Of a stretch of DNA of 32,000 nucleotides, positions 15,534 to 22,720 are shown piece after piece. Positions within the stretch are counted from its first letter, which is position 1. Each line of letters begins with the position of its first letter. The notes under the pieces are model-generated. The model saw only the letters and a list, made by a program, of their open reading frames with translations, was not told the origin of the DNA and searched no databases. Source of the DNA: Horticoccus luteus (GTDB lineage: Bacteria > Verrucomicrobiota > Verrucomicrobiia > Opitutales > Opitutaceae); contig NZ_CP080507.1 in NCBI RefSeq assembly GCF_019464535.1, forward strand, positions 2,430,001 through 2,462,000, given 5' to 3'. A program made the translations under genes and the position numbers.

Positions 15534-18080
15534 TCACCGCCACTCGTGCCGCGGATAACGCCGCGACAACTCCGCCTTCACTTTCGGATACATGTCGCGC
15601 CAGAACGCCGTGAGGTCGTCCGTCACCTGAATCGGCCGCTGGTTCGGCGCGAGCACCTCGATCTTCACCGGCACGCGTCCGTTGCCGACGGTGAATTTTC
15701 CCTCGATCCCGTAAAGCTCCTGAATCCGCGCGCTCAACACCGGCGACCCTTCGTCATGGTAAGTGATTTTTGACCGCCGCCCATTCGCCATCGTCAAACG
15801 CTCCGGCAGATACAGATCGATCACCGCGAGTTGCTCCGCCGTCAGCCAGTCCCGCAGCACCGGCATCACCGGCTTGTCCTTGATGTCGCGGTAACCGAGT
15901 TCGCCATAACACACCTGCTCGATCAACGTCGCCCGATCAGCCGGCGTCACCGGATTAACCTCCAGCTCGGGAAACCATTCCGCCAGCCGGTTCACCCGCG
16001 TGATCCACTGCTCCACCGCCTCGTCCCACGCTTCGAGTTTCAGCCGCCCGGCCAGCACTTCCTTCGTCAGCAACGCCGCCGCCGCATCCAGCGGCGCCTC
16101 GTCGCTGCTCACCTTGGTCTCCAGCACGAGATCGCGAAACCGCCGCTCGCGCCGCGACACCACGCGGCGGATCGATTCGTCGTAACTCACGCCGCGCGTG
16201 TCCTTGAAATCGTCCGGGAAAATCTCCTTCAACCACGCCTCCTCGACCGCCGTGGCGAGGGCGAGCAACACATTCACCTCTCCGCCGCGCCCGCCCACTT
16301 CGTTGATCTCCGCCGCGACCAACAACGGTGCCTTTTGCACCGCGCTTTCGCGCGCCAGCACGCCGCGCCGCTGGTGCACGAGTTCGCAGCGCAGCGTCCC
16401 GCCATCGAGGCGTTTCGCCAGTTGATCCGAAAACCCGGCGAGCACGCACTTCCGCACCTCCACGCCATCGATCCGACCTTCTGCGATGTCGAGGCCTTCA
16501 TCGCCCGCGATCTGCAAAAATTGCTCGAACAACGGCCCCACCTGCCGCGCCGCTTGTGCGTGGATGCCGAGCCGGCGGCACGCGTCCAAACTGAAATTGT
16601 TTTTCTCCGCGAAGCGCCACGCGCGCATCAGCAGGAAAAAATCGCTCTCGTGTTCTTCGCCGAGCAGATCCTCGCGTGCACGCTCCACGTCCTTGCCCAC
16701 GCCGCGCAGCAGAAAATTCCGCCCCTGGGTCAGCGCCGCCATCAACGCCACCGGCCGCACGCAGCCCCGCTCCTGTGCCGCGAGGAACATTCGTGCATAG
16801 CGCGGATGCATGGGAAAACGCAGCATCTTCCGCCCCAGCTCCGAAATCGCCCGCCGCTCGCCCGCCAACGCCCCCAGATCCGCGAGCAGCTCCTCCGCGC
16901 GGTCCAACCCCTTCGCTTCCGGCTTTTCCAGCCACGGAAAATTCGCCACGTCGTCGACGCCGCTCGCCTTCAGCGTCAGCACCACTTCCGCCAGGTCGAG
17001 CCGCTTCACCTCCGGCAATTCCTGCAACGCCCGCTGCCCATGTTCGCGCTCCGTCCAAAGCCGCACCGCGATGCCGGGCGCCGTGCGCCCCGCGCGGCCC
17101 GCCCGCTGGTCCGCGCTCGCGGCGGAGATTTTTTCGACCAAGAGCGTGTTGATCCCGCGATGCGGATCGAAACGCGCGATCCGCGCCAGTCCGCTGTCGA
17201 TCACCGCCGTCACGCCATCGATCGTGAGCGACGTTTCCGCGACGTTCGTCGAGACGATGATCTTGCGCGCCTCGTAGCGCGCCACCGCGCGGTCCTGCTG
17301 CTCCGGCGGCAACTCGCCATGCAGCGGAAAACACACGAATCCGCGCAAGCCCCGCGCGCCCTGAATCGCCTGCACCGTCCGCGCGATTTCGTAACCGCCC
17401 GGCATGAACACCAGCATGTCCCCCGTCGTGGACTCCGCGACACGTTCACACGCCTCCGCCGCGACCTCCCACACCGGCTCGTGTTCGAAGTTCACCGGCT
17501 TCGACCAATACTCGATCGCCACGGGAAAACTGCGGCCTTGCGACGTGAGCACCTCGCACGGTGCGAGATAATTTTTCAACGCGCCGGCATCGAGCGTCGC
17601 CGACATCACGATGATTTTGAGATCGGGCCGCGTGCTTTGCTGCAACTGCAACGCCCGCGCGAGCGAGATGTCGCCATACAAATGCCGCTCGTGAAACTCG
17701 TCGAAGACGATCGCGCTCACGCCCGGCAAGCCGGGATCGAACGACATCTGCCGCAGCAAAATCCCCTCCGTCACGAACCGGATGCGCGTGCGCTCGCTGA
17801 TGCGCGACTCCAGCCGGATTTGATAGCCCACGCCTTCGCCAAGATTCGTGCCCGCCTCCTCCGCCACGCGCTTCGCGAGGAGTCGCGCCGCCAGCCGGCG
17901 CGGTTGCAACACCACCACCTCGCCCTTTTCGCCCAACACGCCATGGCGCCAGAGCATCTGCGGAATCTGCGTCGACTTGCCCGATCCTGTTGGCGCCTGC
18001 ACGATCAGCCGGCCGCACCCGCGCACCGTCTCGATGACGGCGCCTTCGAGTTCATAGATCGGGAGTTCGCGCGGAGACAT
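15534..18080 (-). CDS. hrpB: ATP-dependent DEAH-box RNA helicase HrpB
   Basis: The helicase motifs are APTGSGKSTQIPQ (motif I), FDEFHER (DEFH box), SATL, TNVAETSLTIDG and QRAGRAGR. It also has the HrpB-specific C-terminal domain ending ...RYPRHEWR. The length is 848 aa. Confidence 0.92.
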   Translation of the reverse strand: MSPRELPIYELEGAVIETVRGCGRLIVQAPTGSGKSTQIPQMLWRHGVLGEKGEVVVLQPRRLAARLLAKRVAEEAGTNLGEGVGYQIRLESRISERTRIRFVTEGILLRQMSFDPGLPGVSAIVFDEFHERHLYGDISLARALQLQQSTRPDLKIIVMSATLDAGALKNYLAPCEVLTSQGRSFPVAIEYWSKPVNFEHEPVWEVAAEACERVAESTTGDMLVFMPGGYEIARTVQAIQGARGLRGFVCFPLHGELPPEQQDRAVARYEARKIIVSTNVAETSLTIDGVTAVIDSGLARIARFDPHRGINTLLVEKISAASADQRAGRAGRTAPGIAVRLWTEREHGQRALQELPEVKRLDLAEVVLTLKASGVDDVANFPWLEKPEAKGLDRAEELLADLGALAGERRAISELGRKMLRFPMHPRYARMFLAAQERGCVRPVALMAALTQGRNFLLRGVGKDVERAREDLLGEEHESDFFLLMRAWRFAEKNNFSLDACRRLGIHAQAARQVGPLFEQFLQIAGDEGLDIAEGRIDGVEVRKCVLAGFSDQLAKRLDGGTLRCELVHQRRGVLARESAVQKAPLLVAAEINEVGGRGGEVNVLLALATAVEEAWLKEIFPDDFKDTRGVSYDESIRRVVSRRERRFRDLVLETKVSSDEAPLDAAAALLTKEVLAGRLKLEAWDEAVEQWITRVNRLAEWFPELEVNPVTPADRATLIEQVCYGELGYRDIKDKPVMPVLRDWLTAEQLAVIDLYLPERLTMANGRRSKITYHDEGSPVLSARIQELYGIEGKFTVGNGRVPVKIEVLAPNQRPIQVTDDLTAFWRDMYPKVKAELSRRYPRHEWR

Positions 18081-18203
18081 GGACCATCAAGCGTTCGCGA
18101 CCCCGCGCAGCGTGGCAAGCGAGGTTTCCAACTCGCCGCACGCTCGTCACGTGGCGGCAAAAACTCTTCGTGTCCCTCCCCCTCTCTTCACGCCTCGCCG
18201 TCA

Positions 18204-18259
18204 GTGAATAACCCGTGAGCCACTTTACCCCCAAGTTATTCACCGTTTTCAACCGTGAG
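18204..18259. promoter_or_regulatory. Inverted and direct repeats in the relatively AT-rich control region between hrpB (-) and the + strand structured RNA locus
   Basis: GTGAATAAC (18204-18212) and GTTATTCAC (18235-18243) form a perfect 9-bp inverted repeat with a 22-nt spacer. CCGTGAG recurs at 18213-18219 and 18253-18259. The function as promoter or operator is inferred only. Confidence 0.3.
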
Positions 18260-18319
18260 AAAGTTGTGAAGAACAAAGACTTCTCAAATCGAACACGGCC
18301 GCGCAACCTCGTCCTCGTT

Positions 18320-18665
18320 CCTTGATAGAACAGTCGCCGCTCGCTCCGCTGAAAGGCGGGCCGAAAGCACGACTGGGATAATCCCGGGCGACCGGGGAAA
18401 GGTCGGTGGCAACTGGTGCCGCCCTCCCCTTCCGCTGTGGCGCAAGCCGCAACGGCCAAGGCATATGTCACCAGTTCCTCTGGCCGGAGTCGTGTCCGGT
18501 CAGTTCAGCACGAATCAGGAACTGTGCGGTCAGGCGTGATCAGAAACCACGCTGAGCCGAGTCAGGCCCACGGGACGTTTCGACCCGTGCGCCGAGGCAG
18601 TTACCCAGAGGGTTATGGTTGCTACTGCGCAGACCAGAACGCCATCGCGTTTCCCGGCGGGCCCA
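18320..18665 (+). ncRNA. rnpB: Candidate RNase P RNA-like module (atypical; boundaries approximate)
   Basis: Its motifs are collinear with E. coli M1 RNA as I recall it. These are ACAGTCGCCGC (18330-18340, identical 11-mer), GGGGAAAGGTCGG (18394-18406, compare GAGGAAAGUCCGG) and GGTGCC. Further along are a GCAA-capped hairpin (18437-18450, P12-like), GTGCGGTCAGGCG and GAAACCACGCTGAGCC (compare GUAAACUCCACCCGGAGC). CAGAAC (18635-18640) is followed by GCCATCG (18641-18647), which pairs with CGGTGGC (18404-18410) in a P4-like way. CAGTCGC (18331-18337) against GCTACTG (18621-18627) gives the P2/P4 pseudoknot order. No clear P1 or P15-P18 equivalents were found. Confidence 0.4.
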
Positions 18666-19186
18666 CCCCGCCAGAAGGCCCGGCTCGAAAGAGCCAGGCG
18701 CGCAACGGAAATACGGCGGCGGGGAGAGAGCGAACCTGGCAAAGTTCGCCCAACCTCCTCCACCGGGGCGGCGTGAAAAACCGCGTCACCCCACTGCAAA
18801 AATGAAACGCAACCTGAGAGTTAAGAGGTCAGACCCGTAGCACGGGGCCAACGCCCGGCCAAAAGCCGGGGCCGTCCTCGTGATCAAGGTGCCGACGCGA
18901 AATTGAAAGATTGCAGGCGTGTCTGCACCACGTCCGGCGCGATGCTTCCGGCAGGAAACATCCGAACCGGGCGAAGAGGCCTCACTCGAAAGATCCCGAC
19001 CGGCAACGGTCAGGACGGTCCCGCCATGAGACCGAAACATCCGCATGCCGCGGAGAGTGGCGTCGGGAAACACACAGCCCGCGAAAGCGAGGGCGCCCAA
19101 TGTGTGTGGATGGGAAAGAGCGCGTGGCGAGCGCCCAACCCCGAATTTGGCCCGTAGAGCTTCGGCTCTGCGGGCCTTTTTTGTGC
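18666..19186 (+). ncRNA. Unclassified highly structured RNA segment ending at an intrinsic terminator
   Basis: There is no credible ORF. The segment holds a dense series of GC stems with purine-rich or GNRA-type loops in + orientation. Examples are GGCTC-GAAA-GAGCC (18682-18695), GCGAAC/GTTCGC (18730-18749) and CCCGGC-CAAAA-GCCGGG (18854-18870). Others are ATGCTTCC-GGCA-GGAAACAT (18942-18961), GACCG-GCAA-CGGTC (18998-19011), and ACACACA/TGTGTGT (19070-19076 / 19101-19107) enclosing a GAAA hairpin. A 10-bp long-range helix joins 18868-18877 with 19013-19022. The segment ends at the terminator at 19149-19182. Confidence 0.45.
19149..19182 (+). terminator. Rho-independent terminator (+ strand)
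   Basis: GGCCCGTAGAGC-TTCG-GCTCTGCGGGCC forms a 12-bp stem with one G-U pair and a UUCG loop, followed by TTTTTT (19177-19182). On the - strand the hairpin is not followed by a T-tract (CAAATTCGGGG). The stop codon of the convergent gene lies 4 nt beyond the T-tract. Confidence 0.85.
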
Positions 19187-20746
19187 CTATTGCTTTCGCG
19201 TCACCGCCTTGCCGTTGCGCGTGTTGCCTTCGATCTCAGTCTCAGACGAAAACCCCAGTCCGAAAATCCGCACTTTCGCCGCACTCTCGATCTGGTTGCC
19301 GCGAATGATCGTCGGCCCTTCCCCGCCATGGCGCTGCGAGTGGATGTCCGTGATCGCATCGAAGACCGCCTTCACCGGCGCGTGCAGCACGATCCGGTTG
19401 TTCAACACGCGAAGATCGCCGCCTGAATTTCCGACCACGATCACGTGGTCCAACCCCCGGCTCTCCACGTCAAACGCACACTGCTCCACCGCGCAGTCGA
19501 AATTGAACTCAGTGAACACCACGGATGCGTCAACGAAATGGCAGTCGCGAAACGTGACGCCGCCAAACGAACGCGCGAACTGCATCGTCGCCGCCGGTGT
19601 CGCCCGCACGGTGCACCGCTCGAAAACCGCAAACCGCCCATCGTCGCCATCAATCGTTACGCCGCCGCGATGATCTCCCGCGCTGGCGTCGCGCACGAAC
19701 ACGCAATCCGTGAACCGCATCCGGTAACTATTGGAAAGGTTCAGCACTTTTCGCCGGCCGACGATTTGCAGTCCCTCCGCGGCGAAATCCCGCGTGGACT
19801 GCGTGAGCCGGATCACCGCCCGCGATTTCGCGATCCGCGCCCCCGCCGGCACCACCGTCCCTGCAGGAGAATTGCCCCGCCCGGGATTGCGCAAAGTCAG
19901 CCACCCTTCCTTCGCTTTCAGCACCCGGAAAATTTCCTCGCCGATCGTGATGCTCGTGTAATGCGACGGCTGATGAAAGCCCTCGCCGCGCCGGATCTTC
20001 ACTTCGACCGCTTCATTCACCTTTGGCATCGTGAACGCGTCCGCCGTCTCGCCTGCCCAATTGACCTGCGGCAAAGTGTAATCGCGCGCGAACGGATACT
20101 TGAACTGCAACTCGCCCGCCGCGCCCACCGCCGCCACTTCGTTAAACTCGCCATAATCCTGGTCGAATTTTGCCGCACCGTTCCGGATGAACACCAGTTC
20201 GCCCGGCTCAAATTCGCGCGCCCATTCCGCCAGGTTCAGCCGCACGACATCGCTCCCACGTGCCCCGCTCTCCGCGGAAAACGGATACGCCTGCTCCGCC
20301 GACTCCAGCCAGCCCACGTGGCGATACCCCGCCAGCACCAGTCCATCCGGCACCTTGGGCACGGTGGACAAAATCGTCTTGTCGGCACCGTCCCCGCGCA
20401 ACGTCACCCGGTCGCGTTTGATCGTCCACGCCTGTCGCGCCGCCACATAGTGCCCCGCCGGAAAGTAGATCGTCCCGCCGATCAGAGGGAGCCGGCTCTT
20501 CGCCCGCTCGAACGCCGCTTCATCAACGCTCCAGTCCAAACTATCCACGGCGGAGTAATCGCGGCGCAACGCGTCGAGATTCCGATACCGCCCCGCTTCG
20601 ACCCACTCGCGCACGAGATGCACCTGCCCATCGCCGACGGCACCGAAATCGCGCACATTGAGCACCGCGTCACCGTTTTTTTCTCCTGCGCTCATGGGCG
20701 CCGCCATCAGCCCCAACGTGGCCAGAATCAGAATCGAAAATCGCAT
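19187..20746 (-). CDS. Secreted right-handed parallel beta-helix protein (pectate-lyase-superfamily / GH28-related fold)
   Basis: It has a signal peptide (MRFSILILATLGLMAAPMSA). The N-terminal VLNVRDFGAVGDGQ motif is typical of the Pectate_lyase_3 / tailspike-like N-terminus. The C-terminal half contains repetitive beta-helix-like segments (FTDCVFV, FERCTVR, FRDCHFV, VEQCAFD). Confidence 0.85.
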   Translation of the reverse strand: MRFSILILATLGLMAAPMSAGEKNGDAVLNVRDFGAVGDGQVHLVREWVEAGRYRNLDALRRDYSAVDSLDWSVDEAAFERAKSRLPLIGGTIYFPAGHYVAARQAWTIKRDRVTLRGDGADKTILSTVPKVPDGLVLAGYRHVGWLESAEQAYPFSAESGARGSDVVRLNLAEWAREFEPGELVFIRNGAAKFDQDYGEFNEVAAVGAAGELQFKYPFARDYTLPQVNWAGETADAFTMPKVNEAVEVKIRRGEGFHQPSHYTSITIGEEIFRVLKAKEGWLTLRNPGRGNSPAGTVVPAGARIAKSRAVIRLTQSTRDFAAEGLQIVGRRKVLNLSNSYRMRFTDCVFVRDASAGDHRGGVTIDGDDGRFAVFERCTVRATPAATMQFARSFGGVTFRDCHFVDASVVFTEFNFDCAVEQCAFDVESRGLDHVIVVGNSGGDLRVLNNRIVLHAPVKAVFDAITDIHSQRHGGEGPTIIRGNQIESAAKVRIFGLGFSSETEIEGNTRNGKAVTRKQ

Positions 20747-20899
20747 AAGTTACTACGGCGACGAGGGCCGACCGCCTATCGGCCGACAGCCTTCCGCCCT
20801 CTTGGTTGCGCCCAAAATGCCATCCGACCTTCCTCCTTGCATTCGAAGGCACCGGTCCGCACTTTGATCCTTTTTTCAACGTCAGCCCGCCTTCGCGCA

Positions 20900-22720
20900 A
20901 TGAATCAGAACATCCGCAACATCGCCATTATCGCCCACGTCGACCACGGCAAAACCACCCTGGTCGACAAGCTCCTGAAGGAAGGCGGCGTGTTTCGCGC
21001 CAACCAGCAGGTCGAAGAACGCGCCATGGATTCCATGGATCTCGAACGCGAGAAAGGCATCACCATCAAGGCGAAAAACACCTCGGTGCACTGGGCCGAT
21101 AAAATCATCAACATCGTCGACACTCCGGGCCACGCTGATTTCGGCGGTGAAGTGGAGCGCGCGTTGCGCATGGTCGACGGCGTTTTGCTCGTCGTCGATG
21201 CCTACGACGGGCCGCAGGCGCAAACGCGTTTCGTGCTGCGCAAGGCCCTTCAGCACGGCCTCAAGGTCATTATCGTCATCAACAAGATCGACCGCGATAA
21301 CGCCGATCCCGCGAAAATGTATGACCGCGTCCTCGAGCTCCTCATGGAGCTCAACGCCACCGAGGAGCAGTTCGACGCCCCGGTCGTTTACGGCTCCGGC
21401 CGCGACGGCTACATGATGAAAAACCTCGGCGACAAGCGCGAGAACATGACGCCGCTGTTCCAGACCATTCTCGACCACATCCCGCCGCCGTTCGCCAAGC
21501 CCGATGAGGCGTTTCACATGCTCGTGTCCAACATCGATTGGAGCGATTACGTCGGCCGTATCGCCATCGGCAAAATCCTCGGCGGCAAAATCAACGTCGG
21601 CGAAACCGTTTTCACCGTCCGCCACTCCGACGGCAAACGCCTCCGCTCCAAAGTCACCAAGGTTTTCGAATACTCCGGGCTCGGCACACAGGAAACCGAC
21701 GCCGGCGTCGCGGGAAATATCGTCGGCCTCTCCGGTTTCGAAGACATCGATATCGGCGACACGCTCACCGTCGACGAAGCCGGTCACGCGTTGCCGTTTA
21801 CCGAGATCGACCCGCCGACCCTCGAGATGCAGTTCGCCGTCAACGACGGCCCGCTCGTCGGCCAGGAAGGCAAACTCGTCACCTCCCGCCAGCTCCGCGA
21901 ACGCCTCTTCCGCGAGCTGAAGACCAACGTCTCCATCAGCGTCGACGATTCCGACCGCGCCGGCGTTTTCAACGTCAAGGCCCGCGGCGCCATGCAAGTC
22001 GCCGTGCTCGCCGAAACCATGCGCCGCGAAGGTTTTGAGTTTCTCGTCTCCCGGCCGACCGTCATCGAAAAGGTCATCGATGGAAAACGCATGGAGCCTT
22101 ACGAGACCGTCTGGATCGAAGTGCCCGACGAATGCGTCGGCTCGATCATGCAGAATCTCGCCAACCGCAAGGGTCAGCTCACCAACATGGAAAAGCTGCC
22201 GCACTCCACCATGCTCGAGGCCACGATCACCACGCGCGGCCTCATCGGTCTGGAAATCGACGTCGTCAACGCCACCAGCGGCCGCGGCGTGACCAATCAC
22301 CTCTTCAAGGAATACGGCCCCTACGCCGGCGAAGTCCTCACGCGCCTCACCGGCACGCTGATCGCCACCGAAGGCGGCGAAACCACCGCCTACGCCCTCA
22401 TCATGTGTCAGGAGCGTGGCAAACTGTTCGTCAGCCCTGGCGAACAAGTTTACGAAGGCATGATCGTCGGCGAAAACCCGCGCAACGAAGACATCAGCAT
22501 CAACGCGGTCCGCGAAAAAAAGCTCACCAACTTCCGCTCCCAAGGCGAAGGCGTCGGCGCCGGCCTCACGCCCGCGACCAAGCTCTCCCTCGAGCGCTCC
22601 ATCGAATACATCGCGGCCGATGAATTCGTCGAGGTCACGCCCCAGAGCCTCCGCCTGCGCAAACGCATTCTGCGCGCTACCGAGCGCCGCAAGGCCGAGC
22701 GCTCCGGCAAATCCGAATAA
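20900..22720 (+). CDS. typA: Translational GTPase TypA/BipA
   Basis: The motifs are [37 protein letters not shown] and NKIDR, and the layout resembles EF-G domains II/III/V. The length is 606 aa. The tracked ORF start at 19445 is an artefactual upstream extension antisense to the beta-helix gene. Confidence 0.95.

Follow-up and report, generated by a model that had tools for sequence, protein, structure and literature searches.

MISL RNA (RF03079) in Horticoccus luteus: a full-length copy with conserved boundaries, covarying pseudoknots and class-specific gene neighborhoods

Among the large structured RNAs of bacteria, OLE RNA works as a membrane-associated RNA-protein particle, and ROOL and GOLLD RNAs are often located in prophages and near tRNAs. 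The latter two form RNA-only multimeric cages (PMC12286853). Here, we describe a 32,000-nt stretch of Horticoccus luteus DNA (contig NZ_CP080507.1, positions 2,430,001 to 2,462,000, forward strand; hereafter the window), in which the gap between hrpB and a beta-helix gene encodes MISL RNA (RF03079), a large non-coding RNA of Verrucomicrobiota. We take the MISL family to originate in the comparative-genomics survey of Weinberg et al. from 2017. No study of its function was found in the literature searched, where its sole mention was an example figure of chemical probing in the Ribonanza paper, and the 2017 survey, which covers 224 candidate RNAs (PMC5737381), does not name it in its main text.

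The identity of the RNA was established by a search of the whole window against Rfam 15, which returned a single match:

18376-19135, + strand: MISL RNA core, RF03079 model positions 1-751 of 751 without truncation, scoring 535.3 bits (E = 6e-162; gathering score 274.6), with covariation in 104 sequences.

A permissive scan of 17900-19400 (E ≤ 1) added one chance match to a CRISPR repeat (E = 0.26). At this threshold, the models for OLE, ROOL, GOLLD, HEARO, and raiA found no match, and none of the Rfam models for RNase P RNA, transfer-messenger RNA (tmRNA), signal recognition particle (SRP) RNA, and 6S RNA matched the region. An earlier note, made from the letters of the window alone, had proposed a large, densely structured RNA on the + strand and had suggested the Rfam search. 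Because the covariance-model match is full length, we regard it as practically certain that the gap encodes MISL RNA; the proposed object is real, but it is already catalogued as a family and is not new. Its placement by the earlier note, in the size range of the ornate giant bacterial non-coding RNAs, is supported.

To follow the RNA across relatives, homologues were retrieved from one genome per species (GTDB) with an exact 19-nt seed, GCAACCTGAGAGNTAAGAGG, which is the most conserved segment. The scan gave at least 120 loci in as many species genomes. A homologue of the window RNA was found by nhmmer in 120 of the 120 seed loci listed, 103 of them full length, and the RF03079 model scored 339-611 bits in 15 of 16 other loci tested. 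The window copy and the 103 full-length homologues were aligned with plain MAFFT (alignment A1, 104 sequences, not fitted to structure), and the Rfam consensus structure was transferred onto the alignment. The Rfam helices are paired in 87.5% of cells, as compared to 37-41% in slid controls, in which the partners were shifted by 1-3 columns. The covariation score of 0.369 likewise exceeds that of slid partners (0.06-0.10) and was reached by none of 500 shuffles. Two-sided changes occur in 130 of the 172 Rfam pairs. In the window copy itself, 16 of the 172 pairs are non-canonical.

The predicted fold comprises ∼30 helices, several GNRA loops, and a T-loop-like loop. The latter, a hairpin loop at 18577-18583 with the nearly invariant sequence GUUUCGA, contains the T-loop sequence UUCGA, a resemblance that hints at a tertiary docking site. 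Most pairs are local. The Rfam model places one long-range helix at the center of the RNA:

18818-18820 and 18825-18828 with 18980-18983 and 18985-18987, + strand: central long-range helix.

The segment with the highest conservation, GCAACCUGAGAGnUAAGAGGnnAGACCCGU, flanks this helix. All seven of its pairs are invariant in the 104 sequences, so that covariation neither supports nor contradicts it, and since its 5' strand lies inside the search seed, the invariance is partly by construction. When a full-length L-INS-i alignment was scanned for mutual information, the Rfam pairs reappeared together with signs of additional helices, which were then tested on A1:

18490-18494 (loop, UCGUG) with 18509-18513 (CACGA), + strand: pseudoknot A, 96.3% paired, three pairs covarying (CG/UA, GC/AU).
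18794-18799 (joining strand, CUGCAA) with 18911-18916 (UUGCAG, in an 18-nt hairpin loop), + strand: pseudoknot B, 98.1% paired, two-sided changes in five of six pairs.
19022-19027 (hairpin loop, CGCCAU) with 19057-19062 (GUGGCG), + strand: pseudoknot C, 96.5% paired, two pairs covarying (CG/UA/UG and AU/GC).
18765-18768 with 18789-18792, + strand: stem extension, 90% paired.

Jointly, these four elements, all of which show covariation, are 95.7% paired, as compared to 30-46% in slid controls. It should be noted that the nested structure line reported by cmscan for Rfam models cannot display pseudoknots, and A-C are new only relative to that line. Isolated pairs with high mutual information, such as 18524-18669 and 19022-19057, did not extend to helices and were treated as noise. 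Invariant unpaired blocks are located at the junctions of the fold, namely GCAACCUGAGAG-UAAGAGG..AGACCCGU, CCUCACUCGA, GGUUGCUACUG, and UGGCGUCGGGAA.

The RNA is encoded on the + strand. Folding energy cannot make this choice because both strands strongly outperform dinucleotide shuffles (z = -6.6 for the + strand and -6.3 for the - strand), and it was rejected as a criterion. The strand is instead given by the covariance-model match, by the orientation of the terminator and of the promoter-like site, by an A>T skew of 0.33-0.45 over 18600-19100, and by the G-U pairs that are conserved and abundant in the + strand helices and whose complements could form only A-C mismatches. The purine-rich, GNRA-like loops that the earlier note read on the + strand are present as GCGA, GAAA, GCAA, and GAAA, together with a GGCA loop.

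The gap itself spans 18081-19186 (1106 nt), and its unusual length could be confirmed from the ORF (open reading frame) ends. Spacers elsewhere are ≤ ∼155 nt according to a crude gene call based on G+C at the third codon position (GC3), a comparison that covers the first 18 kb of the window; over that part, the bound of ∼160 nt given by the earlier note holds. The possibility that the region is protein coding, with small unusual ORFs or a decayed gene, has next to no chance of being correct and is effectively refuted already. It could draw on ORFs of 84-139 amino acids on both strands and on stop-free stretches of ∼120 amino acids that are common in the homologues, though the latter are expected at 64% G+C. 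However, the internal ORFs (≤ 139 amino acids) have flat G+C over the three codon positions (0.56-0.70), whereas the real genes have a GC3 of 0.77-0.83 and a second-position G+C (GC2) of 0.38-0.46. In addition, substitutions across 104 homologues have no 3-nt periodicity, the power at 1/3 being ∼0.5 times the mean, and conservation tracks base pairs rather than codons. The protein-like substitution pattern that, according to the earlier note, would have refuted its proposal was looked for in the homologues and not seen.

The conserved RNA exceeds the Rfam model by ∼59 nt on the 5' side and ∼47 nt on the 3' side, and the following features define its ends:

18281-18309, + strand: predicted sigma-70-type promoter, with -35 TTCTCA at 18281-18286, a 17-nt spacer, and -10 CAACCT at 18304-18309.
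18317-18375, + strand: 5' extension, conserved outside the Rfam model (alignment A2 and pair counts).
19136-19148, + strand: conserved linker CAACCCCGAAUUU, which joins the 3' end of the Rfam model to the terminator.
19149-19182, + strand: intrinsic terminator, made up of a 12-bp hairpin with a UUCG loop (19149-19176) and a T6 tract (19177-19182).

The 5' extension as a whole is 90.6% paired, as compared to 23-49% in slid controls. It begins with a terminal hairpin GUUC/GAAC (18317-18320 with 18328-18331, loop CUUGAUA) that is 98.5% paired. The 13 changes from U-A to U-G seen there are consistent with RNA and not with a DNA palindrome. A second domain is closed by the helix 18332-18336/18370-18374, in which all five pairs covary. 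The position of the best -35/-10 match is conserved, with an end 6-7 nt ahead of the 5' hairpin in 89 of 100 homologues, and in Verrucomicrobiia the promoter-like consensus is TGnTAnnnT. Based on this spacing, transcription is predicted to start at ∼18316/18317. As an alternative -35, TTGATA in the loop of the 5' hairpin was considered and rejected, as the would-be -10 lies inside a covarying, variable helix. At the other end, the linker has the consensus CAyCCCCnAAUUU in nearly all homologues. The UUCG-capped, 12-bp terminator with its T6 tract, which the earlier note had described at 19149-19182, is confirmed and conserved: a hairpin and a T-rich tract stand at equal distance in nearly all of the 103 homologues, and the pairs of the GC-rich stem covary. 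An automated flag, which required a T4 run after a stable hairpin, recognized 70 of 103, and most of the others have interrupted T-tracts. The predicted transcript would thus run from ∼18316/18317 to 19182, or ∼867 nt, close to the ∼870 nt that had been estimated from the first clear helices at ∼18320 to the terminator. We consider it highly likely, from these sequence signals, that MISL is an independent transcript of ∼0.87 kb.

Whether the locus could instead give rise to two or more separate RNAs, through internal promoters or processing, with a 5' third distinct from the 3' two-thirds, bears on the same ends. That no covarying helix spans the whole RNA, all pairs being local except pseudoknot B and the central helix, would fit such an arrangement. 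Set against this are the presence of one promoter-like site and one terminator, a constant order of parts in at least 120 species with a near-constant length (∼745-790 nt in most homologues), and the match of a single Rfam model over its entire length in all complete loci; neither terminators nor conserved promoters were seen inside the RNA. Separate RNAs are consequently quite unlikely. Because of the single promoter-like site, the single terminator, and the constant order of parts, the locus is, by its sequence features, one RNA rather than two, and processing after transcription is possible.

Upstream of the predicted promoter lies a further conserved element:

18204-18274, strand not assigned: candidate regulatory region between hrpB and the MISL promoter, with three exact GTGAAnAAC sites.

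The sites at 18204-18212 (+), 18235-18243 (-), and 18266-18274 (+) are three of the five exact sites in the 32-kb window. The first and second are the arms of an inverted repeat of 9 bp, which enclose a conserved core of 22 nt, and the third is directly upstream of the -35. Across the Opitutia loci, a 41-bp palindromic element and a GTGnAGAACAAAG box are conserved, and in Verrucomicrobiia, a related GTGnAyAAsAA box precedes the -35. The palindromic element is more likely a DNA site than an RNA hairpin because changes in its arms are mostly uncompensated. The region is a candidate for a regulator-binding site acting on MISL and/or hrpB.

Nearly all records among the matches listed belong to Verrucomicrobiota. 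The carriers listed include Opitutus, Horticoccus, Lacunisphaera, and Cephaloticoccus in Opitutia and Limisphaerales, Pedosphaera, and others in Verrucomicrobiia. The window RNA is closest, among these matches, to Opitutus- and Horticoccus-type genomes, and the HrpB and TypA encoded on its flanks share 78-91% identity with their counterparts in Opitutaceae loci. Among the loci listed, the sequence groups of the MISL homologues follow taxonomy, and each assembly listed has one MISL locus. Longer versions (847-996 nt), whose 5' half contains large insertions, occur in L002 (4676-5671), L027 (35-927), L075 (4045-4937), and L081 (6014-6860). These derive from marine 'Verrucomicrobiales' metagenome-assembled genomes (MAGs), whose clade has versions of 893-996 nt, and from a Lake Baikal Pedosphaera MAG, and they still match the full Rfam model.

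Some records have labels from outside the phylum. Three MAGs labelled Saccharimonadales, Bifidobacteriaceae, and Klebsiella (L023, L044, and L106) carry a Verrucomicrobiia-type MISL together with the gene order of that class (lipoprotein, M23 peptidase, cysK, rho), and this shared order suggests binning or labelling errors in public MAGs. L018 (Dongiaceae) and L040 and L046 (Bifidobacterium/Bifidobacteriaceae) also carry MISL, and a tblastn search of these records found none of these four marker genes. Finally, the seed occurs in three IMG/VR 'viral' contigs of 2.2-2.4 kb (L121, L122, and L123). Two of them match the Rfam model, one at full length and one cut at the contig end, and the third does not. 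We read these contigs as short pieces of bacterial DNA that were wrongly classed as viral.

The gene context of MISL was compared across these loci. In the window, the flanking genes are as follows:

15534-18080, - strand: hrpB ORF, start codon side at 18080, with Pfam domains HrpB (DEAH-box RNA helicase) and HrpB_C.
19187-20746, - strand: beta-helix ORF of 519 amino acids, stop at 19187, convergent with the RNA.
From ∼20900, + strand: typA (TypA/BipA), identified by Pfam.

The beta-helix ORF has a weak pectate-lyase-like Pfam match (26 bits, below the cut-off) and was found in none of the 120 loci listed. Two long + strand ORFs in the window are artefacts of high G+C, namely a 795-amino-acid shadow ORF antisense to hrpB (15831-18218) and a shadow ORF at 19445-22720, in which the antisense frame of the beta-helix gene is fused with typA. 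In Opitutia, MISL usually has a divergent hrpB upstream, at 180-360 nt from the Rfam start, and typA downstream on its own strand. The region from the MISL terminator to typA is a site of variable insertion, holding from 0 to ∼4 kb of differing genes. In Verrucomicrobiia, neither hrpB nor typA was found nearby among the loci listed. There, of the 45 loci whose upstream flank is long enough, 27 have a divergent small lipoprotein gene and 28 an M23 peptidase gene; downstream, cysK (14 of 41) and rho (9 of 41) are found.

This neighborhood bears on two other explanations of the locus. The first is that the RNA controls typA (BipA) in cis, as a giant leader or attenuator with the terminator as a regulated switch. 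Such a leader would account for the position of typA, downstream and on the same strand in most Opitutia loci and 205-275 nt away in several species, with the terminator between the RNA and typA. However, the convergent 519-amino-acid gene separates the two in the window, the spacing in relatives ranges from 205 nt to >4 kb with differing inserted genes, and typA is absent nearby in the Verrucomicrobiia loci listed. Furthermore, no conserved alternative pairing was found for the terminator, a strong GC hairpin of 12 bp. Membership in the cis-regulatory leaders was rejected on the same grounds, as the next gene in the window is convergent and the downstream gene varies in Opitutia and differs in Verrucomicrobiia. 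A typA leader is therefore highly improbable, and any role in cis is rated about as low.

The second is that MISL derives from a phage or a mobile element and, in the manner of ROOL or GOLLD, is carried on an inserted element, which its size and ornateness and the three 'viral' contigs might suggest. However, in the two of these contigs that matched the model, the RNA makes up ∼1/5 to 1/3 of the sequence. Synteny is stable within each class, sequence groups follow taxonomy, no tRNA or integrase signals are located around the RNA in the window, and the ROOL, GOLLD, and OLE models did not match it. A mobile origin is thus hardly credible. Taken together, the neighborhood argues for vertical inheritance and against cis-regulation, and because no neighbor is common to both classes, it gives no functional lead.

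Based on these findings, our current hypothesis is that MISL is very probably an independently transcribed, trans-acting, compact housekeeping RNA. It would be transcribed from its own promoter (-35 at 18281-18286 and -10 at 18304-18309), divergently from hrpB and independently of the convergent beta-helix gene, and would end at the intrinsic terminator. The RNA would then fold, with its 5' extension, its ∼30 helices, at least three pseudoknots, several GNRA loops, and the T-loop-like GUUUCGA, into a compact molecule that would act in trans, and neither by base-pairing with mRNA nor in cis. A trans-acting housekeeping role is proposed because of the single locus in each assembly listed, the synteny that differs between the classes, the variable gene after the terminator, and the invariant junction blocks.

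Several observations weigh against this hypothesis. The promoter is weak by the Escherichia coli consensus, and a strict consensus scan found none. An exact 19-nt seed may miss divergent members of the family, and the invariance of the seed segment is by construction. The lack of an enclosing helix for the whole molecule means that processing into smaller RNAs is possible. Among the loci listed, the absence of a protein-gene neighbor common to both classes leaves no candidate partner. Lastly, a pairing between 18411-18418 and 18469-18476 conflicts with two covarying helices.

This pairing is one of three long-range complementarities proposed in the earlier note. In the window, the two segments are perfectly complementary over 8 bp, and they are paired in 93% of cells. 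Its changes are one-sided and compatible only (A-U, G-U, G-C). At its variable position, one sequence is non-standard (an unaligned G/A) and A-C never occurs. As 18411-18418 is the loop of the second hairpin and 18469-18476 is the 5' strand of a covarying helix, the pairings are mutually exclusive; the loop sequence imitates the 3' strand of that helix (AACUG). The long-range pairing may represent a pseudoknot in place of the helix's outer pairs, an alternative conformation or switch, or a folding intermediate. The other two complementarities did not survive comparison: 18404-18410/18641-18647 is paired in 58% of cells, and 18868-18877/19013-19022 is paired at the mean of shuffles and broken in 36-47 sequences.

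What the folded RNA would do was considered by analogy. One proposal is that the invariant junction sequences hold a conserved cellular partner and that MISL is the scaffold of an RNA-protein particle. It draws on the invariant unpaired junction blocks and the compact fold, by analogy with SRP RNA, tmRNA, RNase P RNA, and OLE; we view such a partner-binding role as a serious possibility that falls just short of being probable. It is unlikely that MISL is a ribozyme, and an RNA-only assembly like ROOL or GOLLD is somewhat less likely again. A bolder proposal is that MISL would be a new Verrucomicrobiota-specific natural ribozyme or self-assembling RNA machine, with the helix GCAACCUGAGAG-UAAGAGG/CCUCACUC and pseudoknots B and C as its active or assembly site and 18411-18418/18469-18476 as a switch. 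This, too, we hold to be improbable. If MISL is catalytic or self-assembling, the importance would be high.

MISL is among the few bacterial RNAs that match ribozymes and RNA-protein machines in size and conservation and have no known role, and the RNAs of this kind that have been solved (RNase P, OLE, ROOL, and GOLLD) each brought unexpected biology. The window adds no family, but it offers a cleaner definition of the gene, with its ends, promoter position, terminator, pseudoknots, and synteny over at least 120 species. This definition will aid the design of cryo-electron microscopy, probing, pull-down, and knock-out experiments in Opitutus, Horticoccus, Lacunisphaera, and Limisphaera. What is added to this orphan RNA is incremental, namely the extended boundaries, the conservation of promoter and terminator, the pseudoknots, and the synteny map.

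Compared with known systems, the window copy has the same covarying helices as RF03079, in the same phylum and with a full-length match, and differs from the model by the additional sequence at both ends and the three covarying pseudoknots. ROOL (about 580 nt) and GOLLD (about 800 nt) share with MISL their size class, dense helices, and pseudoknots, whereas MISL is chromosomal, has a stable synteny and no tRNA in the window, and is not matched by their models. RNase P RNA, tmRNA, SRP RNA, and 6S RNA are likewise single copy, with their own promoter and terminator, invariant junctions, and pseudoknots. Unlike these universal housekeeping RNAs, MISL is confined, among the matches listed, to one phylum. 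OLE RNA (about 600 nt, of extremophilic Firmicutes) belongs to another phylum and has no sequence or structure match to MISL, and it is located in an operon with a partner gene, whereas MISL has no neighbor conserved across classes. Nevertheless, both are large, conserved, multi-helix RNAs of unknown chemistry that are vertically inherited and apparently housekeeping, and OLE is thus our favored analogy for how MISL may work.

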